From Sphyrna mokarran (Eukaryota): 64,000 nt of DNA. The notes below the pieces were generated by a model. That model searched no databases. It was not told the DNA's origin and saw nothing but the letters and a program-made list of their open reading frames with translations. Of the stretch, positions 32,061-64,000 are shown in pieces. The position numbers and the translations under genes were made by a program. Each line of letters starts with the position of its first letter. Positions within the stretch are counted from its first letter, which is position 1. Location: contig JAGIQG010000002.1 in assembly GCA_024679065.1 (NCBI GenBank), positions 43,834,001 to 43,898,000 of the forward strand. Reading direction: 5' to 3'.

Positions 32061-32096
32061 TCAGTCTTCAATTCTCTGGGTAGTTTCGCTGAGTAT
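32061..32096 (-). CDS. VIM: Vimentin exon 9
   Basis: [11 protein letters not shown]. Confidence 0.88.
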   Translation of the reverse strand: MLSETTQRIED

Positions 32097-35000: not shown

Positions 35001-38000
35001 AAAGAAAACAGATGAAGAGAACTGAAGCAGGTGAAGATGGCGTGTAAATATTTACTAATGTATTAAGGGGGGGTTCAAATATTAGGAAAAAGGCAACCCC
35101 CAGAATACTTGGAAAAATCTGCTGACATCAGCGCAAATACATTATGACAAACCTCTGGGCCAATTACCTTATTGGTGTACTTGAATTTAATTAAGTATTT
35201 GTTTTGATATTCCTCTCTATAGCATCAGAGATAAGTAATTAACCAGGCAATACTAAAAACATAAGAAGCAACATGTTTTGAAAGGCTCATGCGCTTCCTT
35301 ATATGGCCTTGAAATGTATTCAGTCTATAGCAAATTTGGAAGCCATATTGTAAAGCAAATGAGATGGGAAGGGACATTCCTGGATCTCCAGGCCATATTT
35401 TCTCAGTCTATTCAAACAGCATGGTTCCTGATATTCTGGCCAACATCAAACAAATCCCTGAGGAATGGATCATTTATTTCAATGTTGTTTGAGATGCTTG
35501 CTAAGTGAAAATTGGCTGCAAGATTTCCTATATTGCAGCACTAACTGCACTTTGAAAGTGCATTATTGGCTGTGGAACATTTTGGGATATTTTGAGGTTG
35601 TAAAAGGTGATTTTTTTTAATGACCAAGAGGTGCCACTTTCACTGGTGTTCAGAAAGTTGCCCTTAAACTTTACATTGGGATGTTTACCACAATAGATAA
35701 GAGCGGTGAACAGGACTTAGAAACAAGACAACAAGGACAGTATTTTGGACTTTTCATGGGACTGAGGGAAAGTCAAGGCCTGGATCCTTCTGATTGCTAT
35801 GTCTAATTGGGTAATGAAGTATTTAAGAACCAATTTGTAAGCCCATTCTACATGTTGATCATTTCCAATATTTTTTATTCATTAGTTTTGAGCCTATGAC
35901 ACCCACCTTCTCTTGCAATTTTATTTATTTTTTCAGGTTTACCTCTTCCTTACTGCCGACTATTTTATGTACATTATGTTATGCAGAAATGTCAAGATTG
36001 GCACTCAGCCGCATGCTTTCAAGGCTGAAATTTCCAAGTTTCTCCACCTTTCACAGATCCTTCTGTTCCTCAACACTATTAAGAGCCCTACCATTAGCCC
36101 TATACTCTACACATTTATTGTTCCTGCCAAAGTGCATTACCTCACACTTTTCCACATTAAACTCCATTTGCCACCTCTCGGCCCAGCTCTGCAACTTGTC
36201 CAAGTCACTCTGTAAACTAAAACACCCCTCTTCACTATCTACCACACCACCAACTTTAGTATCATCTGCAAATTTACTGATCCATCCCTCAATACCCTCA
36301 TCCAGATCATTTATAAAAATTACAAACAGCAGGGGCCCCAAAACAGACCCCTGAGGCACACCACTCGTCACCGAACTCCACGATGAATATCTCCCATCAA
36401 CCACCACCCTCTGTCTTCTATCTGCCAGCCAATTCCTAATCCAATTAGCTAAATCACCCTCTATTCCACACATCTGCATTTTCTGTAGAAGTCTTCCATG
36501 GGCCACCTTATCAAAAGCCTTACTAAAGTCCATATATACTACATCAACCGCCTTACCCCCATCCACCTCTCTGGTCACTTTCTCAAAAAACTCAATGAGG
36601 TTAGTAAGGCATGACCTACCCTTCACGAAACCATGCTGACTATCCCCAATCAATTCATTTCTCTCTAAATAACTATAAATCCTATCCCTAATAATTCTCT
36701 CCAATACCTTGCCCACCACAGAAGTAAGACTCACTGGCCTATAATTCCCAGGAAGGTCTCTCTTCCCCTTCTTAAACAATGGGACCACATTCGCCATCCT
36801 CCAGTCCTCCGGAACCACACCCGTAACCAACGAGGACCTGAAGATCAGAGCCAGAGGCTCTGCAATCTCCTCTCTTGCCTCCCAGAGAATCCTAGGGTAA
36901 ATCCCGTCCGGCCCAGGGGACTTATCCAACTTCAAACCCTCGAGAATTTCTAACACATCCTCCCTATCTACTACAATACTCCCCAATTTGCAACCCTGTA
37001 CCTCAGTGCTCTCCACAGCTACATTTCCAGCACTCTGCGTGAATACCGAAGAGAAATATTTATTATTTATTTATTTATCCCGAAAAGAGGCAGTCAAGTG
37101 GATAAAGTTGTTAAGAAGGCTTATGGAGTCTTAGCTTTTATTGGTAGGGGGATTGAATTTAGGAGCCGCAGAATCATGTTGCAGCTGTACAAAACTCTAG
37201 TGCGGCCGCACTTGGAGTATTGTGTGCAGTTCTGGTCGCCACATTATAAGAAAGATGTGGAGGCATTGGAGAGGGTACAGAGGAGGTTTACTAGGATGTT
37301 GCCTGGTATGGAGGGCAGGTCCTATGAAGAGAGGTTGAAGGATTTGAGGTTGTTTTCGTTAGAAAGGAGGCGGCTAAGGGGGATCTTATTGAAACATATA
37401 AGATGATTAGAGGTTTGGATAGGGTGGACAGTGATAGCCTTTTTCCTAGGATGGAAAAAGCTAGCACGAGGGGACACAACTTTAAATTAAGGGGTATGAG
37501 TTATAGGACGGATATCAGAGGTAGGTTCTTTACTCAAAGAGTGATTAGGGAGTGGAATGCCCTGCCTGCAGCTGTTGTAGATGCGCCAAGTTTGGTGGCG
37601 TTTAAGAGGTTAGTTGATAAGTATATGGATGAGAAGGGAATGGTTTAGTTAGGAGGGGCATTGCTTTTTATTTTGGTCGGCACAACATCGAAGGCCGAAG
37701 GGCCTGTTCTGTGCTGTATTGTTCTATGTTCTATGTTTCACCACAGGCAATGATTCTTGTAGCTAGACAGTGCTTGAAGTTCTTCCCTTTGTCTTACCAT
37801 GATCAAAACCGTAGCATTCTCAAGTTGGCAACTGAGCAGAGCACTATAAAATTTGATCATAACTGTTTTTCCTTTATAATTCTGTTGGAATTGGTGATTT
37901 TGGCTCTCTGTTATTTAAAATGATTGAAGATCAAATCTATTAAGACTTCTTAGCCTTTCTTTAAAAATATTTCCTTTGCTTTTTCAATGTTATCCATGTA

Positions 38001-41000
38001 TTTCAATAACATTCAGCTTTAACTCAGCATTATCCCTCTTGGCTCTTCCATTGAATTTGATTTGTTATGCAGCTTGCCAGGCCTTTCCTCCAAAGTTAGA
38101 AAAACTGAAGGCATTTTTTTCAGTCTCTGTCCCAAAATCTGTCCCCTAGCCACCAATTCCATCTCTTTCCCTGGCTTTCAATTGAAGCAATCTGTTTGTA
38201 ACCTCCACGTCCTATTCCATCCTGACTTGTGCTTTCAACCACATACCCACCCATCATCAACGCTGTCTACTTCTACCACTGTAATATTTCTATAACCTCC
38301 TCTAGTACTGCTGCTTGCTTGCAATTTCTGCACTGATCCATTCCAGTTTCTTGTGTATCTCCAATTTTAATTGTTCTCCAATGGCAGCTACGCCTTCAGC
38401 TTTCCAGTTTCTGTTCCCTGGAAGTCTGAACCTAAACCTGTTTATCTCTCTACTTCTTTCTTCTCTTTTAAGTCTCTCCTTAAAACCTGCCTCTTTGATG
38501 AAGCATGGTGTCATCTACCTAGAAGTGCATAGGTTCTTGATTGTTAAAAGGGATCAAGGGCTATGGAGGGAAAAACAAAAGAATGGGGCTGAGAAACTTA
38601 TCAACCGTGGTTAAATGGTATGGCAGACTCGATGGACCAAATGGCTTAATTCTGCTCCTATACCTTAAAGAACATAGAACATTACAGCACAGTACAGACC
38701 CTTCGGCTCTTGATTCGACCAGTGGAACGAATCTAATGACCCTCTAACCTAAACTAATCCAATGTTGTCCATATGCTATCCACTGACCATTTGAACACTC
38801 TTAACGTTGGCGAGTTATGGTCTTACTTGTCCTAATATCCCTATGTAGCTTGGTGGCAATTTTGTTGTTGCTAAACATTGGCATGTTTTATGTTAAAAGA
38901 TTTGATCAACGTGCACTGTTGTTGTTGGACAACAAATCTTTCGGTTCTATAACTGAATTTAATTTGTTGAAGGTTACATATAATACATAGAGTACTTACT
39001 GTTCCCTTAAGTGCATCAATATCACAGGTCAGTGTCTGGATTTGTCTGCGGTATTCACTATTCTCTTGTTTAGCTGTGCGAAGAGCATCATTGTTGCGAG
39101 AGGCAGTGTCACTCACATCAGCCAACTGTTTCAATACAAAAACCTCGATGAGCAATTCTTAATATAACACTCGCGTCCTGACTTTACCAAACAAAATACA
39201 TTTAAATTTTAGTTTTGTATTTAATGAAGAACTAATCTACATTGCCCTGATTGCTGTGGGAGTTGCTGTAGGAAAACGTGGATGTGACAGTGACACTGAC
39301 TTCAGAGATTGTAGTGTGGAAGAGTTGATCCTAGAGTGACGAATGGGAAAAGTGCGGAGTGAAGTGATTCCACAGGTTATATTAGGTAATAAGGTGGGAA
39401 AGATAGGGTGGAACTTTCCCCCAAGATTTTCGAAGTGTCATAAAAGTCTGAAAATCGTAGAGTTTCATTCCGGTTTCTCCAACAAGCTTAGATTCTGCCC
39501 CCTCTACTGGCATGAAACGCCTATTGCCAAAAGAATTGAAGAGTGTGGGAAAACACTTGTCGGGGAAACCGACATGCACCTGATTTCCCACATACTGTGG
39601 AGAAGTGGGCCCTCATTCATGAAAACAGGCCAATCAGCTCAACTTGTCAATGCTGCCCAGTTTTTAACCACTAAGCTAGTCCCAATCGCCCGCATTTTTG
39701 CCCATAATCCTCTATACCCATCTTATCCATGTAACTGTCTAAATGCATTTTAAAAAGACCAAATTGTACCCACTCTAATACTGCTTCTGGCAGCTTGTTC
39801 CAGACACACACCATCCTCTGATGAAAAAATTGCCCCTCTGGAACATTTTGTATCTCTCCTCTCTCAAACCTATGCCCTCTAGTTGTTCTGATTACCATCC
39901 CCTCCCGATTGCCAGTCTCCTGATCAGCAATCCCCACATCCAATTGCTAGCCTCACCTTTAGCTGCCACTCATGATGCAGTGTTCCTCTTTCCTCCCCTC
40001 CTACCTCTTTTGTCTGGCTCTGCCCCCTCCTACTCCCTCCCCGATCCCTGAAGGCCCCACTTCCTTTACCAGGGTCCTGGTGGGCACTGCCAGAGTGCTA
40101 GGCTGGCACTGTTAAAGGGGGTACTGCCCTCTGCCCACAACCACCCAGGGGACCTCAGTGGCCTTCAGCACCCTGGCAAGGCCATTACATCTGGTCCCCA
40201 TTGATAGGTCCATCTGTATCTGTGCCAATGAGAATCTCCGCCAGCAAGGTTGGAAAGGCAAATCAAACCTGAACAACAGTGTCCTGGGATCACTGAATAG
40301 ATTTATAAAAGGATATGAATATTTAAATCAGCCTCAAGCCATGATGACGTCAAGTGAAATGGCCCAGGAAAATCACAACTGGCCAGATGCCGGGCGCAAT
40401 TCAGATGTTTTGTCTCCCGCTGAAATCTCCATCCTGCTACGCAACTCAACCAGTGCAGCAGGGTGGGAAAAATCACTCTTTTAAACTGGTATAGTTGAAA
40501 TGTACAAAGCATGGATGGATAAGGATGAGATCAGTCTGTTGATGAAATTGGAATGGTATAACAGTAGTAATTTGAGCTGTTCTAAAATTTAGGTGTTTAT
40601 GAGTATGGAATTTATTAGGATTTTAATGATAATTTAAAATATGCAATTTGGAGTTGGGAGCGAGTGCAATTATGAGATAAGATATAGCTGGTAGATACAG
40701 GAATAGAACTAAGGGCTTAGTATAGATAGTAGTGTGGTAGTAATTATATATTCTGTTGTGGGAGGAAGGGCAAAGATGCCTTTTTTTAAAAATAAAAAAT
40801 AAAGATATAGAATTGGCACTGGGAGGGGGATAGTGCTTGGTATAAGCTTTAGAAGTTTACTGATAGATGGTTTGGCCTCCATTTTGTTGTCATGACTACC
40901 ATACAATGTATAGCAGAAAACATACCTTAGATTTGTACCATTCCTCGGTTTCAGCAATATTCTTAGCAGCAAGTTTATCAAACTGAGAACGAACTTCATG

Positions 41001-44000
41001 GAGTGCTGCAGTCAGGTCAGGTCTGACCACATCCATTTCTACCTTGACTTGTGAGTCTTGGATTTGAGCCTGCAATTCACGAATTTCCTGAAGAAAGGAA
41101 TGAAAATATACAAATCAATGTTTGGTCAAAATAGTACATTCTATGTATCTTTAACCAGCATAACATATTTAAATAAATATTACCCAAAGAAGTATTCTCA
41201 ATTATAAAAAACATGCTTACCTCTTCATGAAGTTTCTTTAAGAACATAATTTCTTCTTGCAGTGACTCAACTTTACGTTCCAGATCCAAACGTGCCAGAC
41301 AGGCATCATCCACATCCTCATAGAAACAACAGAAAAATAAAATCCAGAACAAAGTTAATTAAAACAATTATTCTGCGCTGTTGCAATGTTATATAAAACC
41401 TTATCTCAGTGGTGAGCTGCATTCATAATTATTAATTATGCATGATTGCACACATACTGTATAAAATGCTATGTTAATCCTTTTCTATTTGCCTTTGCAA
41501 CTACATGAAGTGAAACAACCATTTTGTGTTTAAGTTGTAAGTGTCTTTAAGTCTGGTATAAAAATCTCCAATAGGGAATGAGAGCTAACATTGATTTTGA
41601 AATTACTTGTTAATCAATTATGATCCAGTAACATTCTGGCACATACTTTGTCCGTCACATTGAATTATACGTGATAATATATAAAACTGAATACAATAAT
41701 TTAAATCACTCATATCAATGCTCAACCATCAGTGGTATTTGAATAGCTTCAACAACATAAAAACCGAGGTTTGGAAAATGTGAAGGATGAGGTAGAGACA
41801 ACAACCATTTTAAACAATGTTAAAAATATGTCCAACAATAACGATTCCAAAATTGACAGACAGCACTCAAGCAGCTCCAGATGCTTGTAAATTTGGCATA
41901 AACTCTATTTCATGCTACACCACCCATCTTCTGGTCAATCTTAAATAGAAATACACAGGCATTACAAACAGAAACATTCCATTCTGCCCAACCAGTTCAT
42001 GTTGGAATTTACTTCCCATGATAATTGCAATGAAAACCAAATTAGACATAAATTAGCCTTATATCCATAGCTTTAAGGAAGCTACAAAGACTCACAGTCA
42101 GCATGCAAGAAGAAAAATAGAAACTTCTGAGCTTTTTTGGGTCAGTTGCAGTCATTCATGATCAGTGATTGTTCAACTCTGCTGTTCGAGAATGACGGTT
42201 GTCATTAACTATCAGAGATGATGAAGTTACAAATCAAATAAAAAGTCATTGTTCAAATTCTAATTATTTTTGTGTATCCTTAATTGATTTTGATATTCTG
42301 CTGATCAAACATTCAAAGAGTTTTAAATAAGATTAAAAAATATTTTTTCAAAAAAAAGTGCTTTTACTCTTTATAAGTTTTTAAAAGTTTTGTTAGAAGT
42401 TAAATATTCCATCCTGTTGTTCCAGATTGCTGTATTTCATTGCTGAAAATGCAGCTGGCACTCATGCTGAACGGGATTAGGCTGGAAGATGAAGGCAGTT
42501 ATTTAAACCTGCTATGAAGTCTTGATGATCAAACAGTTGGTGACATTAATTGCAGCTTGAGCTTTGATGTGGTAACTTCAGTACAAAGCACTGTAATAAG
42601 TTCTCTAATTAGACAGGACAGTTAGGTTTGTTCAATAGTGAGCGAGTTTGATGCTATAGAACAGCCATGGTGCTGATTTTATTAACACTGGGTCAATTAC
42701 GAAACAGCAGCTATTGTGTTCTATTTGCTGTTTGAGGGACAATACTTTAAAATGCTTTGAAGGCAACATTACCTAATCAGCTGTACTAGAGATTTTGTGA
42801 TCATTTAACAATCAACTGAGTCTTTTATAAAAATGCATCCAATTAAGTTTGTAACTATAAAGGGGAATAAAGAAATGGCTGAGAAATTACATTCCTATTT
42901 TGCAAATATTTGTCTTAAATATTTATTGTTTGTAACAGTTGTCTTCACAAACAAAGACATGAATAATATGCCATAAGTGCTGCGAGGAACATATTTTAGT
43001 GCAGAACATTAGTAGAGAAATGGTTTGGGGAAATTAATAGGATTGAAGGTGGATAATTCTCTAAGACCTGATAATTTTCATCTCAAGTACTTAAGGAAAT
43101 GGCCCTCGAAATAGTAGATCCATTGGTAGTTATTTTTCAAAATCCTTTGGACTCTGCAGTTGTTCCTACAGATTAGTTACCATCCAATGTAAGCTCACTA
43201 TTCAAACAGAAAGAAAACAGGGAACTAAAGACTAGTGAACCTAACATTGGCACTGGGGAAGTTGCTAGAGTCTATTATCAAGGATTCATATCTCAGCATT
43301 TGGAAGTCAGTGGTATAATAAGCAAAGCCAACATGTGTACAATCAGACAAAGTCAGCATGGATTTACAAAAGGGAAATGATGCTTGACAAATCTATTAGA
43401 ATTTTTTGAGGATGTAACTGGTAGAACTGACCAAGGAGAACGAGTAGATATGATTTACTTCGATTTTCAGAAGGTTTTAAACAAGGTCTTACATAACAGA
43501 CTACTATGTAAAGTTAAAGCACATGGGATTGCAGGTAACATCTTGAGATGGATAGAAAGATGTTTAGCAGATAGGAAGCTAAGAGTTGGCACAAATTGAT
43601 CTTTTCTAATTGGCAGTCAGTGACTATTGGGATTCCACAGAAATCTGTGCTCAGACCCCAACTGTTCCCATTATAATGATATGGAAGAGGGAACTGAATG
43701 TATTATCTCCAAATATGCAGATAATACAAAGTAGGGTAGGAGGATGAGTTGAGGGGAATACAGAGATGCTTCAGCATGATTCAGCAGGCTGAATATGTGG
43801 GCATCTGCACGGCAGATGCAGCGTAATGTGGATAAACCTGAGTGTATGCACTTTGGCAACAATAATAGGAAGATAGATTATTACTTGAATGGGCGTAAAT
43901 TGAGAGAGGAGGATACTCAACAAGAGCTTTGGAGTTCTCATGCATCAATCGTTGAAAGTAAGCACTCAGGTACAGCTCGCAGTAAAGAAGATAAATATGT

Positions 44001-47000
44001 TGGCTTTCATAGTGAGAATTTGAGTATAGGGATAGGAATGTTTTGCTGCAACTGATGAGGTCACACCTGGAATATTGTGTGCAGTTTTGGTATCCTTACC
44101 TGAGGAAGGATGGCTTTGCTATAGAGGGAGTAGCGTAGAGCAAGTGTAGAGCAACACAGCACGGGAAACAGGCCCTTCGGCCCAACGAGCCCACGCCGCT
44201 GTCATAACTATATAGTAACAATTCCATTATCCTATTCTAATTTTAGGTTATTCCTAATATGGAAGAATCTCAATGTAGGGACAATTTGTTTCCCAATCAG
44301 CCTAAGAGCGAATTTTTGGGATGTGGGAGGAAACCGGAGCGCCCGGAGAAAACCCACGCAACCACGGGGAGAACGCGCAAACTCCCGCAGACACTGGCCC
44401 AATTCCAAGTGTCTGCACAGCTACAGCGATAGTCACTGAGCTGTCATGGTGCCCTTCAGATGGTTCAGATAAAGCACTCATTTACGACATGAAGCACCAG
44501 GCAACCCATGAATCAACATCCAAGAGCTCGCACCACCTGCCAAATGCATGCTGCTTGTTGGTCAAGTTGGACCGAATTACCTGTGGGAAAAAAAGCCATA
44601 GTTAAACAGTCCTACAGTGTAGGACTGTACAGAGTACAGTGAAGGCTAACCAGGCTGATTCCAGGGATAGCAGGTCTGTCATATGAGAAGCTAATTCGGT
44701 TAGGATTATTCACTGGAGTTTAGAAGAGTGACAGGGGATCTCATAAAAACTTAGAAAATTTTAAGGGTTGGACAGGATAGATTCAGAAAGAATATTCCAA
44801 TAGTTGGAGGATACAGATTAAACCTTTTAGAACTTTAGAGCAATTTCTACAAGCAGAAAATGTGTGGAATTCACTACCACATAATTTATTGATACCAAAA
44901 CATTGTCTGATTTCAAGAAGAAATTAGATATAGCTCGTGGGGCTAAAGGGGTCAAGGGATGGGGGAATTAGGATAATGAATTCAATGATTAGCCATGATC
45001 AAAATGAATGGCAGAACAGTCTTGAAGAGCCAAATGGATAACTCCTGCTTATAATTTTTACATTTCTATAAATAGAGAACCAAAATAATGTTTTTTCAAT
45101 TGTTTGACTCCTATAGAAGTACTTCTTTCTAGCAAATCACAGAATGTGGGGAGACTGAAAGCATTCTTAGCACCTTACTTGGCGAAGGACAATTAAGTTT
45201 TTGGTAACAAACAGAACGACACATTAAATTAGTCCAAATGAAAAACAATAGCATGTTTGACCATTCTTAGCTTATCTTTGTGTTTAATTTTTTACAGCTC
45301 ATTTCATACAAGATCTCAATTAAATACACACAAGTTAAAAACATGTTTGATACAAGTGTTATTGGTCAATGAGTTAATGCCTTCAGGACAGGAATAAGAA
45401 AGGGAAACAGATCAATGAAGTTTTTTTCACTGTTTTTGAGTATTCTGTTGTTAGCATGTTGCATGTGGGTTACCAAATTGTGTGTTCCTTTATTCAATAA
45501 TTATTTTTTTTCTAGAAAAAAATTAAAGCTTTGCTTTCTAGTTTCCTTGTCACTAAGATGTTAATGTTGCTACTGCAACAACTCTAATCTACTGATTTCC
45601 AGCTGTACAAAAGTATCTAGTCATTTAATTATTTTACTGATATGAGCAGTGTTCTTTTCACAGCATCTCAAGACAAATTCTTGTTGGACTTCACTTCATA
45701 TTAGTGGGGAATAACAAATAGCCGATCCTTGGAATCATTGTTACCACAGTTCATTTGACACAATCATGCGTTAGACTGATAAAAGTTTGTGCATCTGCTC
45801 AAACTCAATCACGTCTATCCACCACAGGGGGAGCTAATGGAAGCAATAAGTTGCTTCTCAGTGCAAAGGAATCTTAATGAAAGGGACTGCCCCAGAATGC
45901 CACACCCTGTAGACTCAGGAAAGACGTGTGGTTGTGGGCCTCTGGATCAAACACAGCAAGAATTACTTTAAAAAGAATGTGTTCTTTAATTTAACAGAAC
46001 AAAAGAAGAAAAGAACAAAAGAAACTGCACTGATGCAAGAGCAGTAAAACAGTGGCTGCTTAGTAATTCTGTCCAGCTGGAACTTCAGAAAGAGAGTATT
46101 CCATCATGCACAGTCAGCCTCTGGGAGCCAGACGCTTCCTCAGGAAGAGAGAAAATTACTGGCCATGTCACCCCAGGCTGCTCTTGTGCATTTTCCATAG
46201 GATGTCTCTGAATATCATCAGCAGAATTCCATGCTGACTCAGGGAGTCAGACACCATGTATTATGCAGTTACAACAACACTTTGATTCTTGCTCTTTGCT
46301 GAATTAACCAATAATACCTGGGACACTGAGGACATTTTCACAGACATCCAGATAACCTGAACTGGGAAAACGGGAAAAAATGCCACTTTTTTTGCAAAGA
46401 GCACATATATGGCCATCCAGTGAGGATGGTAGCATACCTTACCTTGACTGATCCCACCAAGTAAACTGCTCACACAGCTGGGGTAATTTTAACCTAACTC
46501 ACCAGGCGGGGCTCCTGCAGGGTTGGCTGGCATGCCAGCTTGCACCCTAGTGCATATAAAATCAATTGCCCACCCCAGCCCTCTCCTCAGGTGGGTTAGG
46601 TTAAAATTGCCCCTCTAGGAGTAGATATCGAAATCAAAGCTACTTATAGGAATATCTTTACAGGTGGTCGACTACAGCAGGGTGAGCAAAGGATGAAAAG
46701 CAATCAGAAGCAGAGACTTGGGAAAAGATTTTTGGTTGACATTGACATATTTAAGAAATAATCAAATAAATTACATTTCAGATGCTTTTGTAATACCCTT
46801 CTTGTTGCATTGATTTTATCCCCAAATGTTCTAAATTGTTATAAATTCCTAAGTTTTGCAGAAAGCTACTCGCTGCAGGGAATGTTAGAACGTGAGGGGT
46901 GTGGTTCAAAAGAAGGGACCGTTCTAAGGCAGCTATTTAAAGGCCTTTTCTCTGCTCACAGATTGGATTGGGTGTGTCTGTCTCTCTGTATGTGGTCACT

Positions 47001-48993
47001 TGGTGGGAGGCTTGCCGTCCGGTTTCGTGGGCATTGACTATCAACTCGAGCCCTCCCGATCACTGAAATCAGGTTGAATTTTTACCGATGGCAATGGGTT
47101 TAGTGTTCATACCTGTCTGAAAGCTGCCAGGTTGTTTTCGGCCTCCTCCCGCTGAAGAATTTCATCTTGCAATCTGCAAATAACGGTATTGAGATATCAG
47201 ATAGTTTCCACTTCGCCTCGAAGGGCGGCGTTTGAAGCCGCCCTGAACTTTCACTGCTGGACACTAAAGTTTTAAGGATGCTTAAATCCCTCTCCTTAAT
47301 TACCTATATTCTCGCTTTTCTTTCCAGTTGAATATATAGATATATATCCCAAGAACTGAAATCGATTGCTTTGCAAAAGTTTTGGTTAAATGTTTGCAAT
47401 CTTATTCAAACATTGGAATTAAGTCGCAGATACTGGTTGAACAGATACTAAGGGCGGAGTTAGTGTCTGTCCTAAAGTGTGCATTTAAACCTGCAGTCCA
47501 CAAATTGGGCGCCACTTTCCCCAACTCAATTTGAAAGCAAACAAACGGGATGTTCCCCCATCCAAAATCAGGACAATTCTTGACTTTGAATTTAGGCTAC
47601 AATTACGCTGCTAAGGCTAACTCTAATGTAAGGACGCTTCACCATTTCAATGGTGACATGACACATGTGATACAAGTCGCCAAAGGGAGATGATTAGAAG
47701 AGTGACGGGACAGGGTGGGGGTGGGGAAAGGAGTCCCGCCCTCCTTCCCCCACCCCCGGCTAAATCAGGAGCGTCTGCCCAGTTTACGAAACGCAAGATG
47801 ATCTCACGAGCTCAGTTTCCAAAGATCCATTCGGATGACTGAGCTCTTTTCTCCCGCTGCCACTTCCACACCCATCAATAGCTCCAATCACTGCACACAG
47901 ATCCGCGAATTCACAAATCTCCTCTAACACCCAGGCTGGAAATAACAATGAAGTGTGGAGTATCCACAGGAACTAAAGGGAACTTTATACAACTTGCCAG
48001 ACCAGCTGATATCATTCCACAATCCATTTGCACCAAGACATTTCTTTCTGATTTACACAAAAAAAAGTCTTGCCCTGAGGAGTTAAGAGCGGATTTAACT
48101 ATGTACTCTTGAGAGCTTTCAAACATTCTTCTAAGGAATGTCTGCATTCTCAGACTGCTGTGGGATTATCTGATGCCAATGAATCCATTATAGCGGCTTA
48201 GTATTTCCAGCATTTTTGTTTTGTTTCTAATCGAAAAAGCGTTCCCCCCCCAAAAAAAAATAACCCACAAATGTTGCTGATGTAGAGAAACATATTCTTC
48301 ATTACAGTTTTAGTCTGAGTCTGTTATTTTAGAGTAACTTGCAGTCCAGTTAGTTCCCTCTCATTGTGTGAAAGTGGACAACTTTTGAAGGACATCTGTA
48401 CACCTCACCTTCCCCGCCCCCCTAAACCAAGTGAGCCCCACTGTACCGAGATAGTAAGAAGCACACACTCACTTCTCTCTCAACTTCTGGAGATCGTCCG
48501 CCAGGTTATCCCTCTCCACCTCCATGCGGGATTTCTCATTGTTGACCTGGTCGATCTGGAGGCGCAGGTCTCTCAGCTCCTGCTCGTACATATCGCCGAC
48601 GCGGGACCTGGGCTTGCCCTTCAGCATCTCCAATTCGGCCAGCAGCATCTTGTTCTGCTGCTCCAGCCCCCTCACCTTGTCCAGGAAGCTGGCCAGGCGG
48701 TCGTTCAGTTCGATCATCTCGGCTTTTTCGTTGCTACGGTTCACCTTGAACTCCGAGTTCATGGCATCTACCAGGGAGAAGTTCAGGCTGCTCCCCACGG
48801 ATGCCCCCGGGGCGCTGCTCCTGGCGTACGCCGCCTTGCTGCGCCGGATCATCGGCTGCTGCGAGTAACTGCTGATCCTGGTGCTGGAGCTAACGCGCGG
48901 CACTGTACGGACCGAGTAAGAGCGGTAGCTGGATATGGGCTTTACTGGTGCCTCGCTAAAGATCCGGCGGTAGGTACTCTTTGTAACGGACAT
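32061..48993 (-). CDS. VIM: Vimentin, 9 coding exons, 450 aa
   Basis: Exons 48993-48473, 47173-47113, 41316-41221, 41087-40926, 39125-39000, 34500-34280, 33460-33417, 32278-32193, 32096-32061 total 1353 nt; GT-AG introns; internal exon sizes 61/96/162/126/221/44/86 match the VIM pattern; YRRIF head motif, [14 protein letters not shown]; HACD1 synteny. Confidence 0.9.
32193..32278 (-). CDS. VIM: Vimentin exon 8
   Basis: [29 protein letters not shown]. Confidence 0.88.
33417..33460 (-). CDS. VIM: Vimentin exon 7
   Basis: [15 protein letters not shown], 44 nt. Confidence 0.88.
34280..34500 (-). CDS. VIM: Vimentin exon 6
   Basis: [26 protein letters not shown]. Confidence 0.95.
35390..35615 (+). 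mobile_element. Old DeuSINE/SacSINE1-like 3' fragment
   Basis: AAATTGGCTGC..ACTGCACTTTGAAAGT..ATTGGCTGT; approximate reverse complement of part of 53810-54420. Confidence 0.45.
36055..37735 (+). mobile_element. Young CR1 insertion with 5' inversion in vimentin intron 5
   Basis: 36055-37064 is an inverted RT segment; 37077-37735 is the sense 3' end; flanked by TTTCAC at 36049-36054 and 37736-37741. Confidence 0.9.
39000..39125 (-). CDS. VIM: Vimentin exon 5
   Basis: [42 protein letters not shown]. Confidence 0.93.
39404..40480. mobile_element. Non-autonomous TIR element with a nested CR1 3' end (about 39620-39890, minus)
   Basis: Imperfect termini AGGGTGGAACTTTCCC / GGGAAAAATCACTCT; interior resembles 23166-24045. 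Confidence 0.45.
40926..41087 (-). CDS. VIM: Vimentin exon 4
   Basis: [54 protein letters not shown] (not in the ORF track). Confidence 0.93.
41221..41316 (-). CDS. VIM: Vimentin exon 3
   Basis: [32 protein letters not shown]. Confidence 0.93.
42855..45065 (+). mobile_element. Decayed CR1 with a nested SINE (44150-44455, minus)
   Basis: [33 protein letters not shown]. Confidence 0.85.
46480..46613. mobile_element. Short MITE
   Basis: TIRs GGGGTAATTTTAACCTAA / TTAGGTTAAAATTGCCCC. Confidence 0.75.
47113..47173 (-). CDS. VIM: Vimentin exon 2
   Basis: (K)[20 protein letters not shown], 61 nt. Confidence 0.93.
48473..48993 (-). CDS. VIM: Vimentin exon 1 (CpG island)
   Basis: [33 protein letters not shown]; donor GTGAGT. 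Confidence 0.95.
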
Positions 48994-56580: not shown

Positions 56581-57647
56581 TTATAGATTACATTATACTA
56601 TTGGAAGAGTCCTACAAATTTCAGAGCCCTATGTTACTGTTTCTGGTTGCCCATCGGGAAAAAAAAATGAAAGTGGCATAGCTGCTTGTGTAAAATAAGC
56701 AAGAGCTTCAGATTGCCTATTGTTACCGAAATCTCCAGTTGCTGTGTGAAAGCTATTGGCGGCAAATCAATTTGGGGCTGCAGTGACATTAAACGCAATC
56801 TGGTGCAAGTTGTAATACAGTTCTTATTGCATGAAACAGCACAACTTTGTGACAGCCTTCCAAGAAAACAGTAACTTCTTATTCACTGCCCTTTACCTAA
56901 GGTCTTATTCACTGCATTCTTCAAAGGCTAAAGATTCCTACAAGTACATCTAATGTCCCCAGACCTATAGCTCGATTCTTTCTTCATCTGAAAAGATTGC
57001 AATTTCCAGAAGGAGCCAAAAAGTACCAATGAGCTGTAAACATTAACCCCCTAAATTCTCTACAACATTTAAAATGAAAACAGGTGAATATTTCTTCAAA
57101 TATGCTTCCTGTGATCGGATGCCAGGAATTGCATGCAATTCTCCTCACCATGCAACCAACCTGGTAAACTAGTGAAAGAAGACCAAGAATTTCAGAGTCA
57201 TGTCAAAATGTCTTTAAAAGTTTGCCGCTCAGTTCTTGGTCTTGTATTTTTTTAGCTGTTTTCCCTGTTATTACTGGAAACAACTAAATTCCACAAAGGC
57301 TGAACAATATTGGTTCTTCAAACTTTACATAAATATTATTAAAATATTCAGGATCACAAATACTGATTTCTTCCTCAGTTTAAGCAGGAAGTTTTATTTC
57401 AGCAGTAATAGCAGTATTACAATCAATAGTTAAGGTGAAGCAATAAAAACTTGAAATTCAAATTCAGACCTGTTTGACTAAATATACTGTAATGGTGTAC
57501 TTTTTTATTTGAAATTGAATTTTTCAAATGACTTGATACTTCCCTAGCACTTCAATTCAATCCAGAAAGCAATAATGCTTAAAAGCTTGTTCTTCACATA
57601 AAGAAAATTGCAATTCTTATTTTTTAAGATTCATGACTTTAACTCAG

Positions 57648-57719
57648 TTAATCTTCACTCAATTCAGTCCGATCAGTGGCTTCCTCCAGTTCAAACTCGT
57701 GTGAAGTTTCACTAAGTAT
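57648..57719 (-). CDS. Vimentin-like paralog, last exon
   Basis: After TTTATAG reads ILSETSHEFELEEATDRTELSED*. Confidence 0.8.
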   Translation of the reverse strand: MLSETSHEFELEEATDRTELSED

Positions 57720-57837
57720 CTATAAATGGAAAAGCAAAAGAAATCTATGATTTTTAAAAATATTTCATTTAAAACTATGTTTAAATTCATTTTAAATTGT
57801 TCCTTTTTGAGAGCATCATTGTCAGACACTAACTAAC

Positions 57838-57926
57838 CTCGCCATCTTTTATCTCAATTGTTTTCATAGACAGTGTTCTTTTGGGAGAACGAATCTCAGG
57901 TTGTTTATCCTCTTCAATGTCTGTTT
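57838..57926 (-). CDS. Vimentin-like paralog, exon 8 equivalent
   Basis: ETDIEEDKQPEIRSPKRTLSMKTIEIKDGE; donor GTTAGT; phases 1 and 0 as in VIM. Confidence 0.85.
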
Positions 57927-58380
57927 CTGGAAGTGAAGGAAAAAAATTATACATGGCCTTAATGTGCAATGTCCATATCTGGATTAACTTGTAATTACTT
58001 AAGAATTCTTCTTTACTGAACTGATTAACCATTTCTATCAAACAAACTCTAAATTGGATTGGGTGGATGAGCTTGCTTAAAAACATATTTAATGAGGAAG
58101 CTATTCTAGACAGTGGAAGAACAAATGGTGCTGCCAAGAAAACGAAGAATAGAAACATAAAATTCCCATAAATAACTGCATTAGTGTATGGAAGATAGCC
58201 ATTTAATTGCCATAATGATTACAAATTACAAGTGTGTATTTAATGGTAAGGCACCAAGGCTACTACCATAGTTGTAAACAATGTATATTTTAATTTATTG
58301 AGCATTAGCTCAAAGAAAACCAACAAATATTTGAATAATATTTTCTTATTCAAATTTTACAAGTGTAATGAACAACCTAC

Positions 58381-58427
58381 CTTTCAAACGTAAATTGACA
58401 GGGATTGGAGAATATTGGATGGAAAAC
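58381..58427 (-). CDS. Vimentin-like paralog, exon 7 equivalent
   Basis: (R)FSIQYSPIPVNLRLK; acceptor TTTTGTAG, donor GTAGGTT; phases 2 and 1. Confidence 0.75.
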
Positions 58428-59319
58428 CTACAAAATAAAGAACTTGGTTAACACAGCAGTTTTGTTTACAACTTTCACTTTAATTCTTTAATTTTTCATG
58501 TCAGGGTAAGTACCTACATTCCATTTTAATTCATTGTGTGAACATTTTTAGATATCTTGATGTTATAAGATACTTAGAGCTGTACATTTCTACACTCAAT
58601 AATTAAGGGAGTGATCCTCTGGCCCTGTGCCTTCATGCACCAATCATGCTAGGGCAGAGAATCGTTGGCGAGGAATTATAGTGTATTTGCACTGATGAGA
58701 GCCATTTTTGGGATTCTCCCCATCCACACACTTGAACACAATCTGGTTTATGCCAATGGCTGTGAACCAAGAAACAATATTTTCCATTGTGTACTAATAC
58801 ATGTGACAGTAAATCAAATCAAATACTGGATCAATATATTTAACTAACATTTAAACATGCAAGGTCAGTTTGGAGCCAGATTCTCCCAGCTCCTACCATC
58901 CTCAAACCCTCAGACACAGAGGGAACCTGGCATGAATCACTACTGGTCTTCACAAATGGAAACCAGTTGTGATGGCTGGCAAGGCAGTTGAGATGGGGGG
59001 AGGAGGGGTGAGGGGCGTAGTTTGGAGGCTATTGAAGCCCCAGGGTGGTTAAGGAAATGGTTAACCAGAATGCTAATCTGATAGTCTCATAGCAGGGTTG
59101 CTCATTTGCTGGGGAATACCAGTGAATCATGAGGATATGGCTGATACAAGGGAACAGAGGTGATGTTAGCCAGTGAGTAGGAGGGTAGTGTGTATAGGGT
59201 TGTATGAAGATAGGGGCACCTTTAAAAATGTCTTGCTGGTATCTTTAGGTCCCCAATCCAAAAAAACATTCGAAGTGTGATGAATTGCAAATTGAATTTG
59301 TATGTCATCACTGTTTACA

Positions 59320-60697
59320 GGTATAGTGCCAGAAGACTGGAGGATAGCAAATATTGTACCCTTGTTCAAGAAGGGGAGTAGAGACCATCCTGGAAATTAT
59401 AGATTAGTTAGCCTTACTTCTGTTGTGGGCAAAGTTTTGGAAAGGATTATAAGAGATAGGATTTATAATCATCTAGAGACAAATAATTTGATTAGGGATA
59501 GTCAACACAGTTTTGTGAAGGGTAGGTCATGCCTCACAAACCTTATTGAGTTCTTTGAGAAGGCGACCAAAGAGGTTGATATGGCTAAAGCAGTTGATGT
59601 GGTATATATGGATTTCAGTAAAGCATATGACAAGGTTCCCCATGGTAAACCACTGCAGAAAATACGGATGCATGGGATTGAAGGTGATTTATCAGTTTGG
59701 ATCAAGAATTGGCTAGCTGAAAGAAGGAAATCTTCAACCTGGAGTCAGTTACTAGTGATGTACTGCAGGGATCTGTTTTGGGGCCACTGCTGTTTGTTAT
59801 TTTTATAAATGACCTAGATGAGGGTGTAGAAGGATGAGTTAGTAAATTTGTGGATGACACTAAAGTCGGAGGAGTTGTAGACTCCTATGGATGTTACAGT
59901 TTGCGGATGGATGTTACAGTTTGCAGAGAGACATAGATAAGTTGCAGAGCTGGGCTGAGAGGTGGCAAATGGAATTTAATATGGAAAAGTATGAGGTGAT
60001 TCACTTTGGGAGGAGTAACAAGATTACAGAATTTTGGGCTAATGGAAGACTCTTGATAGTGTGGATGAGCAGAGAGATCTAGATGTACATAGATCCCTGA
60101 AAGTTGGCACCTCAGTTGATAGTGTTATTAGGAAAGTGTATGGTGTGTTAACTTTTATTGGTAGAGGGATTGAGTTTCGGAGCCGTGAGATCATGTTGCA
60201 GCTGTGCAAAACTCCGGTGTGGCTGCACTTGAAGTACTGTGTATAGTCCTGGTCATCGCATTATAAGAAGGATGTGGAAGCTTTGGAAAGAGTGCAGAGG
60301 AGATTTACCAGGATGTTGCCTGGTATGGTGGGAAGGTCTTATGAGGAAAGGCTAAGGGACTTGAGGTTATTTTCATTAGAGAGAAGAGGGTTAAGAGGTG
60401 ACTTAATTGAGGCATACAAGATGATCAGAGGATTAGATAGAGTGAACAATGAGAGCCTTTTTCCACAGATGGTGATGGTTAACACGAGGGGACATAGCTT
60501 TAAATTGAGGGGTGGTAAATATAGGATGGATATCAGAGGTAACTTCTTTACTCAGAGTAGTAAGGATGTGGAATGCCCTGCCTGCAGCAGTAGTGGACTT
60601 GCCAACTTTAAGAGTATTCACATGGTCATTGGATAGACATATGGATAATACTGGAAATAGTTTAGGTTAGAGGGTCATTAGATTGATTCCACCAGTC
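59320..60697 (+). mobile_element. Older CR1 copy whose terminal ~55 nt is displaced to 63879-63935
   Basis: PEDWRIANIVPLFKKG.. with frameshifts; the 3' UTR breaks at CCACCAGT and resumes CGGCGCAACATCG..GTTCTATG. Confidence 0.85.
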
Positions 60698-60783
60698 ATA
60701 GAACATAGAACATTACAGCACAGAACAGGCCCTTCGGCCTTCAATGTTGCGCCGACCAATATAAAAAGCAATGCCCCTCCAAA

Positions 60784-63690
60784 CTAAACCATTCCCTTCT
60801 CTTCCATATACTTATCAACTAACCTCTTAAACGCCACCAAACTTGGCGCATCTACAACTGCTGCAGGCAGGGCATTCCACTCCCGAACCACCCTTTGGGT
60901 AAAGAACCTACCTCTGATATCCGTCCTATAACTATCACCCCTTAATTTAAAGCTGTGTCCCCTCGTGCTAGCTTTCTCCATCCTAGGAAAAAGGCTATCA
61001 CTGTCCACCCTATCTAAACCTCTAATCATCTTATATGTTTCGATTAGGTCCCCTCTTAGCCGCCTCCTTTCTAACAAAAACAACATCAAATCCCTCAGCC
61101 TCTCTTCATAAGACCTGCCCTCCATACCAGGCAACATCCTGGTAAACCTCCTCTGTACCCTCTCCAATGCCTCCACATCTTTCTTATAATGTGGGGACCA
61201 GAACTGCACACAATACTCCAAGTGCGGCCGCACTAGAGTTTTGTACAGTTGCAACATGACGTTGCGGCTCCGAAATTCAATCCCCCTACCAATAAAAGCT
61301 AAGACTCCATATGCCTTCTTAACAACCTTCTCGACTTGACTGCCTACTTTCAGGGATCTATGCACATACACACCAAGATCCCTCTGTTCATCAAGACTAC
61401 TAAGAATCCTACCATTAGCCCTATACTCTACACATTTATTATTTCTGCCATAGTGCATTACCTCACACTTTTCCACATTAAACTCCATTTGCCACCTCTC
61501 GGCCCAGCTCTGCAACTTGTCCAAGTCCCTCTGCAAACTATAACACCCCTCTTCACTATCTACCACTCCACCGACTTTAGTGTCATCTGCAAATTTACTA
61601 ATCCATCCTTCAATACCCTCATCCAGATCATTTATAAAAATTACAAACAGCAGGGGCCCCAAAACAGACCCCTGAGGTACACCACTTGTCACCGAACTCC
61701 ACGATGAATATCTCCCATCAACCACCACCCTCTGTCTTCTATCTGCTAGCCAATTCCTAATCCAATTAGCTAAATCACCCTCTATCCCATACATCTGCAT
61801 TTTCTGCAGAAGTCTTCCATGGGCCACCTTATCAAACGCCTTACTAAAGTCCATATATACCACATCAACCGCCTTACCCCCATCCACCTCTTTAGTCACT
61901 TTTTCAAAAAACTCAATGAGGTTAGTAAGGCACGACCTACCCTTCACAAATCCATGCTGACTATCTCCAATCAATTCATTACTCTCTAAATAACTATAAA
62001 TCCTATCCCTAATTATTCTCTCCAATACTTTGCCCACAACAGAAGTAAGACTCACTGGCCTATAATTCCCTGGAAGGTCTCTCTTCCCCTTCTTGAACAA
62101 TGGGACCACATTCGCTATCCTCCAGTCCTCCGGAACCACACCCGTAACCAACGAGGACTTGAAGATCAGAGCCATAGGCTCTGCAATCTCCTCTCTTGCC
62201 TCCCAGAGAATCCTAGGGTAAATCCCGTCCGGCCCAGGGGACCTATCCAACTTCAAACCCTCAAGAATATCTAGCACATCCTCCCTATCTACTTCAATAC
62301 TTTCCAGTTTGCAACCCTGTACCTCAGTGTTCTCCATAACTACATTTACATCACCCTGCGTGAATACCGAAGAGAAATATTTATTCAGTACCTCTCCAAT
62401 CTCTTCAGGCTCCACGCACAACTTCCCACTGCTGTCTATGACTGGCCCTAATCTTGCCCTAACCAATCTTCTATTCTTAACATATCTAAAGAAAGCTTTA
62501 GGATTCTCCTTAATCCTATCAGCCAAAGTCTTCTCGTGTCCTCTCTTAGCTGTCCTCAATTCACTCTTTAGCTCCCTCCTGGCTAATCTATAGCTATCCA
62601 TTGCACTAACCGAGCCTTCAAGCCTCATCCTGACATAAGCCTCCTTTTTCCTTTTAACCAGCAAATCAACTTTTTTCGTACACCAAGGTTCTCTTACTCG
62701 ACCATTTCCTCCTTGCCTGACAGGGACATACTTATCAAGGACTCGCAGCAGCTGCTCCTTGAATAAGCTCCACATTCCAGATGTTCCCAGTCCCTGTAGT
62801 TTCCTAGTCCAATCTATGCACCCTAATTCTCTCCTGATGGCCTCATAATTACCCTTCCCCCAGCTATAACTACTGCCCCCAGCTTCATGCCTATCCCTAT
62901 CCATCACTAAGGTGAACGTAACCGAATTGTGGTCACTATCACCAAAATGTTCACTAACTTCCAAGCCTAACACCTGGTCTGGCTCATTGCCCAGCACCAA
63001 ATCCAATGTAGCCTCACCTCTAGTTGGCCTATCTACATACTGAGTCAAAAAACCTTCCTGCACACTTTGTACGAAAACTGACCCCTCTAACGAGCTAGAG
63101 CTATAGCTATTCCAATCAATATTAGTAAAGTTAAAGTCCCCCATAACAATTACCCTATTACTTTCACTCCTGACCAGAATTGACTTTGCAATCCTTTCCT
63201 CTACCTCTCTAGAACTTTTAGGAGGTCTATAAAAGACTCCCAACAGGGTGACCTCTCCTCTCCTGTTTCTAATCTCAGCCCATACTACCTCAACAGACAA
63301 GTCCTCATCAAACTTCTTTTCTGTCACTGTGATACAGTCTTTGACTAATAATGCCACTCCTCCCCCCCTTCTACCTCCTTCTCTACTCCGACTAAAGCAT
63401 TTGAACCCCGGAACCTGCAACATCCATTCTTGTCCCTGCTCTACCCAAGTCTCTGAAATGGCCACAACATCGAAGTTCCAGGTACTGGTCCAAGCTGCAA
63501 GTTCCTCCCCCTTATTGCGAATACTCCTTGCATTAAAGTATACGCATTTCAAACCATGCCCTACCCCACCCGTATGCTGCTGTGTTTTACAGCTTTCCTC
63601 TATGACCCCCTTACTCTCATCCCTCTTAGCACCCCAACTACTTAGGATCCCACCCCCCCCCCGAATCAGTTTAAAGCCCCCTGCATAGCC
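60784..63690 (-). CDS. CR1 ORF2 (APE endonuclease plus RT); frame open from 63690
   Basis: [34 protein letters not shown]; no stops; I read the frame as open upstream of the TTG at 63552 up to TAA at 63693-63691. Confidence 0.93.
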   Translation of the reverse strand, partial: GYAGGFKLIRGGGGILSSWGAKRDESKGVIEESCKTQQHTGGVGHGLKCVYFNARSIRNKGEELAAWTSTWNFDVVAISETWVEQGQEWMLQVPGFKCFSRSREGGRRGGGVALLVKDCITVTEKKFDEDLSVEVVWAEIRNRRGEVTLLGVFYRPPKSSREVEERIAKSILVRSESNRVIVMGDFNFTNIDWNSYSSSSLEGSVFVQSVQEGFLTQYVDRPTRGEATLDLVLGNEPDQVLGLEVSEHFGDSDHNSVTFTLVMDRDRHEAGGSSYSWGKGNYEAIRRELGCIDWTRKLQGLGTSGMWSLFKEQLLRVLDKYVPVRQGGNGRVREPWCTKKVDLLVKRKKEAYVRMRLEGSVSAMDSYRLARRELKSELRTAKRGHEKTLADRIKENPKAFFRYVKNRRLVRARLGPVIDSSGKLCVEPEEIGEVLNKYFSSVFTQGDVNVVMENTEVQGCKLESIEVDREDVLDILEGLKLDRSPGPDGIYPRILWEAREEIAEPMALIFKSSLVTGVVPEDWRIANVVPLFKKGKRDLPGNYRPVSLTSVVGKVLERIIRDRIYSYLESNELIGDSQHGFVKGRSCLTNLIEFFEKVTKEVDGGKAVDVVYMDFSKAFDKVAHGRLLQKMQMYGIEGDLANWIRNWLADRRQRVVVDGRYSSWSSVTSGVPQGSVLGPLLFVIFINDLDEGIEGWISKFADDTKVGGVVDSEEGCYSLQRDLDKLQSWAERWQMEFNVEKCEVMHYGRNNKCVEYRANGRILSSLDEQRDLGVYVHRSLKVGSQVEKVVKKAYGVLAFIGRGIEFRSRNVMLQLYKTLVRPHLEYCVQFWSPHYKKDVEALERVQRRFTRMLPGMEGRSYEERLRDLMLFLLERRRLRGDLIETYKMIRGLDRVDSDSLFPRMEKASTRGHSFKLRGDSYRTDIRGRFFTQRVVREWNALPAAVVDAPSLVAFKRLVDKYMEEKGMV

Positions 63691-63878
63691 TTAGCAAATT
63701 TTCCCCCCAAGATATTAGTTCCCCTCTGGTTCAGGTGTAGACCATCTCTCTTGTAGAGGTCCCACCTATCCCAGAATGAGTCCCAATTGTTCAGGAACCT
63801 GAACCCCTCCCTCCTGCACCATCCCCGCAGCCACGAGTTCAAACATTCCCTCTCTCTATTCTTCTCTAAACTATCCCT
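63666..63878 (-). CDS. CR1 ORF1 C-terminal fragment (SGNH esterase-like)
   Basis: LNSWLRGWCRREGFRFL..LYKRDGLHLNQRG..ALN*. Confidence 0.85.
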   Translation of the reverse strand, partial: RDSLEKNRERECLNSWLRGWCRREGFRFLNNWDSFWDRWDLYKRDGLHLNQRGTNILGGKFAKAMQGALN

Positions 63879-64000
63879 CGGCGCAACATCGAGTGCCGAA
63901 GGGCCTGTACTGTGCTGTAACGTTCTATGTCTATGTCTTATGAATTGCAGCAAATCACCCAGCATGAATCCCACCGGTTTTCTGGCTGGAGATAAAACTT

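Follow-up and report, generated by a model that had tools for sequence, protein, structure and literature searches.

Here we describe an intact second vimentin gene in Sphyrna mokarran, lying in tandem upstream of the shark vimentin gene. It arose by a duplication dating from the shark-ray split or earlier, and its product likely co-assembles with, and tunes, the filaments of the downstream gene; we give this reading as a whole a probability of roughly 60%. Hereafter the upstream paralogue is gene B and the downstream shark vimentin is gene A.

Gene structure and locus

The window is the 64,000-nt stretch of DNA that was analysed. Its numbering is continued past its end, such that a place on contig C771 equals 43834000 plus the number given. 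The initial annotation had recognised three minus-strand exons of 47, 89 and 72 nt, and these indeed carry AG/GT ends, their end phases of 1 and 0 being those of A. With A exon 1 as query a second match was found 42 kb further along the contig, and exons 1-6 of B, 1-28 kb past the window end, were located by tblastn and a splice scan of the 200 kb beyond the window. Recovery of exons 1-6 past position 64000 had been set beforehand as a test of the gene. The complete gene has nine exons, GT-AG ends at 8/8 introns and a coding sequence of 1380 nt, encoding 459 aa with no internal stop; disabling mutations were looked for and none was found in B. The features are as follows.

91783-91278, minus strand: B exon 1, coding part, 506 nt (tblastn and splice scan)
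76368-76308, minus strand: B exon 2, 61 nt (tblastn and splice scan)
71561-71466, minus strand: B exon 3, 96 nt (tblastn and splice scan)
68979-68818, minus strand: B exon 4, 162 nt (tblastn and splice scan)
67793-67668, minus strand: B exon 5, 126 nt (tblastn and splice scan)
65060-64840, minus strand: B exon 6, 221 nt (tblastn and splice scan; loose ends of contigs X1 and X2 match its end)
58428-64000, minus strand: B intron 6, in-window portion, of 6412 nt overall
58427-58381, minus strand: B exon 7, start of the tail, 47 nt (AG/GT ends, phase 2 to 1; contigs X1 and X2)
57926-57838, minus strand: B exon 8, with the KTIEIKDG turn motif, 89 nt (AG/GT ends; spliced contigs; hairpin predicted from an orthologue model)
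57719-57648, minus strand: B exon 9, coding part, acidic extension, 72 nt including the stop (spliced contigs)
57404-57647, minus strand: B 3' UTR as far as X1 extends, 244 nt, with AATAAA a few bases beyond
32061-48993, minus strand: gene A, the downstream shark vimentin, nine exons, 450 aa

The stretch 57600-58500 has a single match in the genome. Exons 2-6 (61, 96, 162, 126 and 221 nt) and all phases are equal in A and B, and the donor hexamers of intron 7 (GTAGGT) and intron 8 (GTTAGT) are identical in the two genes, as originally noted. The stop of B lies 8655 nt from the ATG of A at 48993, in agreement with the earlier estimate of about 8.6 kb. The two proteins share 221/439 aligned residues (about 50-51%), with identity of roughly 51-67% by segment across the rod; divergence is thus not confined to the tail but extends into the rod. 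Predicted mass and pI are 53.4 kDa and 5.01 for B, and 51.7 kDa and 5.01 for A, so near to equality that on gels one could be taken for the other.

On its other side B lies head to head with TRDMT1, about 13.6 kb from the B ATG, with CUBN further out; HACD1 and then STAM lie beyond A. These four genes are identified from matches to short motifs, and a Pfam search of the genome for PF00145 (TRDMT1) gave 0 matches. The position of B, between TRDMT1 and shark vimentin A, matches the order of the mammalian VIM block, CUBN-TRDMT1-VIM-HACD1-STAM, in which to our knowledge mammals have one VIM only. Mammals also have ST8SIA6 between VIM and HACD1. From the last HACD1 exon located to the end of A (582-32061) no sialyltransferase motif was seen, in what is a lower-bound search, and of 53 PF00777 sialyltransferase matches in the genome none is on C771; ST8SIA6 may be absent from the shark locus.

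The genes also differ in composition. GC3 of B exon 1 is 0.44, whereas that of the genome's four other type III genes is 0.77-0.84, and first-exon CpG observed/expected is 0.57 in B and 0.86 in A. The low GC3 and the CpG-poorer first exon suggest that B is regulated separately from A. Intron 6 of B also holds a LINE-type retrotransposon (63690-60787, minus strand) with an uninterrupted 968-aa frame containing endonuclease and reverse transcriptase domains. Pieces about 94-95% identical to it occur in A intron 5 and related pieces in B intron 5, hence the family looks young.

Transcript evidence

Four runs were aligned (X1, X2, X6 and X15), X7-X14 being excluded for their small word shares, and spliced contigs of B were obtained from 2/4. 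The X1 run, which we guess to be RNA and whose source is possibly the same as that of the genome, contains 54/54 sampled words of B exon 1. A 1760-nt X1 contig joins exons 6-7-8-9 exactly, as looked for in the spliced-read check that had been proposed for the gene. Aligned to 57250-58520, the X1 contig agrees over 454 bases with 0 mismatching letters and leaves out precisely the introns of 118 and 454 nt, and its loose end past exon 7 is the end of exon 6. In the contig, exon 7 starts at base 1309, a position that would fit 1172 coding bases preceded by a leader of about 136. X2, from a different organism, has both joints as in X1, whilst X6 spans the 3' end only and X15 reads through unspliced. 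The observation is real, chance being excluded by the spliced contigs of two runs.

Distribution and naming of orthologues

Searching with B exon 1 gave 67 proteins from 571 candidates. The best 20 of the 67 are B-type and 13 of these come from named sharks, rays and skates; cluster look-ups added four more species, bringing B orthologues to 17 named sharks, rays and skates. Identity to 11 elasmobranch orthologue records ranges from 65 to 91%, the closest named relative being that of Mustelus asterias (91%). A and B are on equal-sized contigs in 11/11 species with both sizes on record, and the S. canicula A and B accessions are consecutive. A bony B-type protein was absent from the 67 matches (0), which is not a fair test of absence, and B-type motifs were seen in 0/117 top vimentin matches, which is weak evidence and again not a fair test of absence. 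Alternative B isoforms are present in databases, for S. canicula (P0119, P0004 and P0120) and also as P0003 and P0125, one of them with another tail end.

The corresponding search with A exon 1 gave 46 matches from 665 candidates, amongst them the Scyliorhinus vimentin CAC17961.1 and the Tetronarce type III protein P23729; A is therefore the shark vimentin already on record. It is 86% identical to the Scyliorhinus protein (CAC17961.1/Q9DDB3). One ray-type gene A vimentin, P0076, is filed under the bacterium Kangiella spongicola, probably through contamination of the record.

B itself is already predicted in public annotation and so is not new to databases, where it carries automatic names: 'GFAP-like' in 7/17 species and 'vimentin-like' or 'type III IF-like' in the rest. 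We found no paper describing B in a literature search that took in few subscription papers, and no paper there treats the conflicting database models as one vimentin paralogue.

Protein features and proposed role

By several marks B is a type III protein, having the nine-exon structure, an IF rod and head and, by prediction, a basic-D-G hairpin. Between the end motifs the rod is 299 residues in B, in A and in seal vimentin alike. Orthologue P0001 matches Pfam Filament over 1-313/313 with Filament_head over the cut-off, and the rod of the Mustelus orthologue aligns without gaps to vimentin 8RVE (E 6.6e-129). In the monomer model of the Mustelus protein (mean pLDDT 71.5) there are three long helices, and the tail forms a hairpin with K-D-G at its turn (423-433/436-447, pLDDT about 70-83). 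B is thus predicted to have a normal coiled-coil rod of unchanged length followed by a tail beta-hairpin.

Motifs were tallied in 14 B orthologues, 15 A proteins, 104 bony vimentins (the rows of 440-475 aa among 116, one being skipped) and 10 DES/PRPH/GFAP rows; the B tally leaves out 2 S. canicula isoforms, 1 N-extended model, 5 N-truncated near-duplicates and 5 cluster members. B lacks the ten-residue rod-end consensus of canonical vimentin. The glycine of rod-end LLEGEE is replaced by Ser, Thr or Ala in 14/14 B proteins (TYRNLLESEE in the window gene), whereas LLEGEE is kept in 15/15 A, 104/104 bony vimentins and 10/10 DES/PRPH/GFAP. The head pattern Y/F-R/K-R/K-x-F, which includes the nonapeptide Phe, occurs in 0/14 B as against 13/15 A and 94/104 bony vimentins, and is missing from 2/10 DES/PRPH/GFAP rows. 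Head arginines number 2-6 in B and 7-11 in A, and the B head is basic (net +6 to +9). Median tail net charge is -10 in B, -3 in A and -4 in bony vimentins. A longer, acidic tail had been claimed for the window gene, and measurement bears this out (68 aa, net -9, versus 54 aa, net -4, in A).

KTIEIKDG had also been considered closer to the type III motif than the KTIETSGG of A. This holds for the turn only, since B keeps the basic-D-G turn and A keeps the Thr, and each matches KTIETRDG at 6/8 letters. The turn is K-D-G in 13/14 B proteins and Q-D-G in 1/14, and KT[IV]ETRDG is present in 100/104 bony-vertebrate vimentins. In the 15 A proteins the turn reads S/R-G-G throughout instead of R-D-G, and coelacanth vimentin (P0087) is also without R-D-G.

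From these head, rod-end and tail changes we infer that B is a weaker self-assembler. The head nonapeptide is described in a review as required for assembly (PMC11121635), head-deleted desmin is reported to form no filaments alone yet to join a vimentin network (PMC2116339), and vimentin assembly is reported to be perturbed by rod-end and tail mutations (PMC2119649). We propose that the B rod would dimerise and pack like that of other type III proteins, with the arginine-poorer head, decayed nonapeptide, altered rod end and longer acidic tail weakening self-assembly. B would then enter filaments with the A product, or with desmin or GFAP, and such mixed filaments might be packed or spaced differently, or differ in solubility, in a limited range of cells.

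The main rival to a partner-subunit role is that B is a self-sufficient, tissue-specific vimentin isoform, its motif changes being tolerated drift or compensated and the ancestral expression domain being split between A and B. The unchanged rod length, the 160 columns invariant across the 14 B orthologues, the basic head and a promoter make-up unlike that of A would all suit such an isoform. Moreover, given the basic head and the 2/10 DES/PRPH/GFAP rows that lack the head pattern, B may well polymerise alone. However, three assembly-related features change jointly in 14/14 B proteins and are largely fixed in the 129 other type III rows, and although we take a stand-alone isoform to be a serious contender, we lean towards B as a co-assembling subunit.

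Phylogeny and age of the duplication

The initial annotation had viewed the exons as an old tandem duplicate with a divergent tail, and had called for a phylogeny. In a rod tree (327 columns, 39 chosen rows, JTT+I+G4) A and B both fall inside the vimentin clade (support 95/96). The clade including B had 98 in an earlier quick tree and has 87/86 under a mixture model without exon 4. A, B and the chimaera row group together (97/99) beside the bony vimentins (99/99), apart from DES, PRPH and GFAP. Orthologues in 17 species, separate DES, PRPH and GFAP genes in the same genome and rejection of a B+GFAP grouping together identify B as an old tandem duplicate of vimentin, and exons 1-6, the open frame and the spliced contig uphold that view. 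Duplication took place no later than the shark-ray split and probably before the chimaera split.

The chimaera is represented by a single UniRef record, the Callorhinchus 'Vimentin-like' protein P0022, which resembles B over exons 1-3 and A from exon 5 onwards, with the tail end of A. In the Atlas it fell into generic IF clusters only. It pairs with B in exons 1-3 (97/100), but exons 5-6 (87/89) and the tail place it with A. Across the full alignment B is paired with the chimaera by 10 sites (8 of them in exons 1-3), versus 3 and 2 for the other pairings. The view that this record is simply the chimaera's B orthologue was considered and rejected, because exons 5-6 and the tail pair with A. Judged from sequence, the mixed pairings by segment would fit either exchange between tandem neighbours or a fused chimaera gene model. 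The second vimentin gene of sharks and rays has a partial counterpart in the chimaera.

By AU test the whole rod rejects B+GFAP (p 0.001), A+bony (0.025) and B+chimaera+bony (0.023), and keeps A+B without the chimaera (0.062) and A+chimaera (0.076). With the chimaera row removed, A+bony has p 0.009 and B+bony p 0.014. We do not treat the whole-rod A+B clade as decisive, because exon-wise tests show its dependence on exon 4: of the 16.6 log-likelihood units by which A+B is favoured over A+bony, 14.4 come from these 54 of 327 columns. Without exon 4, AU values on 25 rows are 0.67 for A+B, 0.45 for A+bony and 0.17 for B+bony (B+bony 0.17 and 0.13 in the two tests), and a mixture model on 21 rows returns a three-way fork of A, B and bony vimentins. 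Exon 4 has a 24-nt run identical in A and B; its fourfold sites (5/11 identical, A versus B) give no sign of recent conversion.

Such dependence also suits an older origin, in which vimentin duplicated before the split of sharks and bony vertebrates, the bony copy was lost and conversion of exon 4 mimics sisterhood, making B an older fifth type III gene. No history is rejected once exon 4 is removed, exons 1-3 alone join A with bony vimentins, weakly (77/63), and several exon 4 residues are common to elasmobranch A and B and absent from the chimaera record. Against this stand the whole-rod rejections of A+bony and B+bony given above, with or without the chimaera row, and A+B remains the best tree under JTT even without exon 4. 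Moreover, A-B agreement at fourfold sites of exons 2-6 (26/40) is above that of the other nine type III pairs here (9/34 to 28/50), and the searches described above, neither of them a fair test, brought up no B-type bony protein. We consider this older origin possible but unlikely. Its fuller form, in which B goes back to the jawed-vertebrate ancestor as a fifth type III gene, was lost in bony vertebrates, is an obligate vimentin co-polymer and has its age masked by exon 4 conversion, strikes us as doubtful; if it were true, B would have been kept for more than 400 million years in cartilaginous fishes and the chimaera record would be a fusion of genes or of annotation. The most likely history would instead be a duplication on the cartilaginous-fish stem, followed by faster evolution of B (stem 0.68 versus 0.25), and the neighbours A and B would have exchanged exon 4 sequence long ago.

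That B is the shark GFAP or another known type III gene, as the automatic name 'glial fibrillary acidic protein-like' in 7/17 species would have it, is refuted by the rod tree and the AU test, with separate genes grouping with GFAP (C849), DES and PRPH (C113 and C971) at 99-100% and B in the vimentin neighbourhood. Equally negligible is the chance of a decaying pseudogene, or of a duplicate made in assembly: nothing was found in its support bar the faster evolution of B, and it is refuted at the RNA and sequence level by the open 459-aa frame, the spliced contigs, the limited identity of A and B, the single genome place of the terminal exons and the full-length orthologues in sharks and rays.

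Significance

Standard teaching gives the type III family four genes; in sharks and rays the number is five. B is a natural variant in which the parts played by rod end and head nonapeptide in assembly could be tested. Under its 'GFAP-like' label B risks being wrongly used to mark glia in expression data from sharks and rays, and the vimentin recorded for sharks is gene A alone. A catshark vimentin study of 2001 reportedly saw an unidentified IF protein in interstitial fibroblasts, for which B would be a candidate.

Comparison with known systems

Shark vimentin A (CAC17961.1/Q9DDB3, P23729) has in common with B the locus, the lengths of exons 2-6, the phases, the rod length and the clade. Unlike A, B has a shorter and arginine-poorer head, an altered rod-end motif and a turn of K-D-G where A has S/R-G-G; its tail is more acidic and exceeds that of A by 8-17 aa, and its first exon is poorer in CpG. 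Database models such as S. canicula XP_038653958-60 are B orthologues under automatic and conflicting names.

Bony vimentin shares with B the clade, the gap-free rod and the tail turn motif, and in the human gene order TRDMT1 adjoins VIM as it adjoins B here. Identity to B is 46-54% in the three rows compared and 8RVE is the best solved-structure match to the Mustelus orthologue, whereas the LLEGEE that is invariant in bony vimentins is altered in every B protein tallied.

Nestin, synemin and NF-M are co-polymerising IF subunits. B may resemble them in working only, through weakened assembly motifs and an acidic tail, and nestin is reported to co-assemble with vimentin (PMC2698154). B differs from all three in its type III exon structure, its basic head, which is about 50-65 aa long, and its short tail; it does not belong to their classes, and its co-assembly would be a likeness by analogy.
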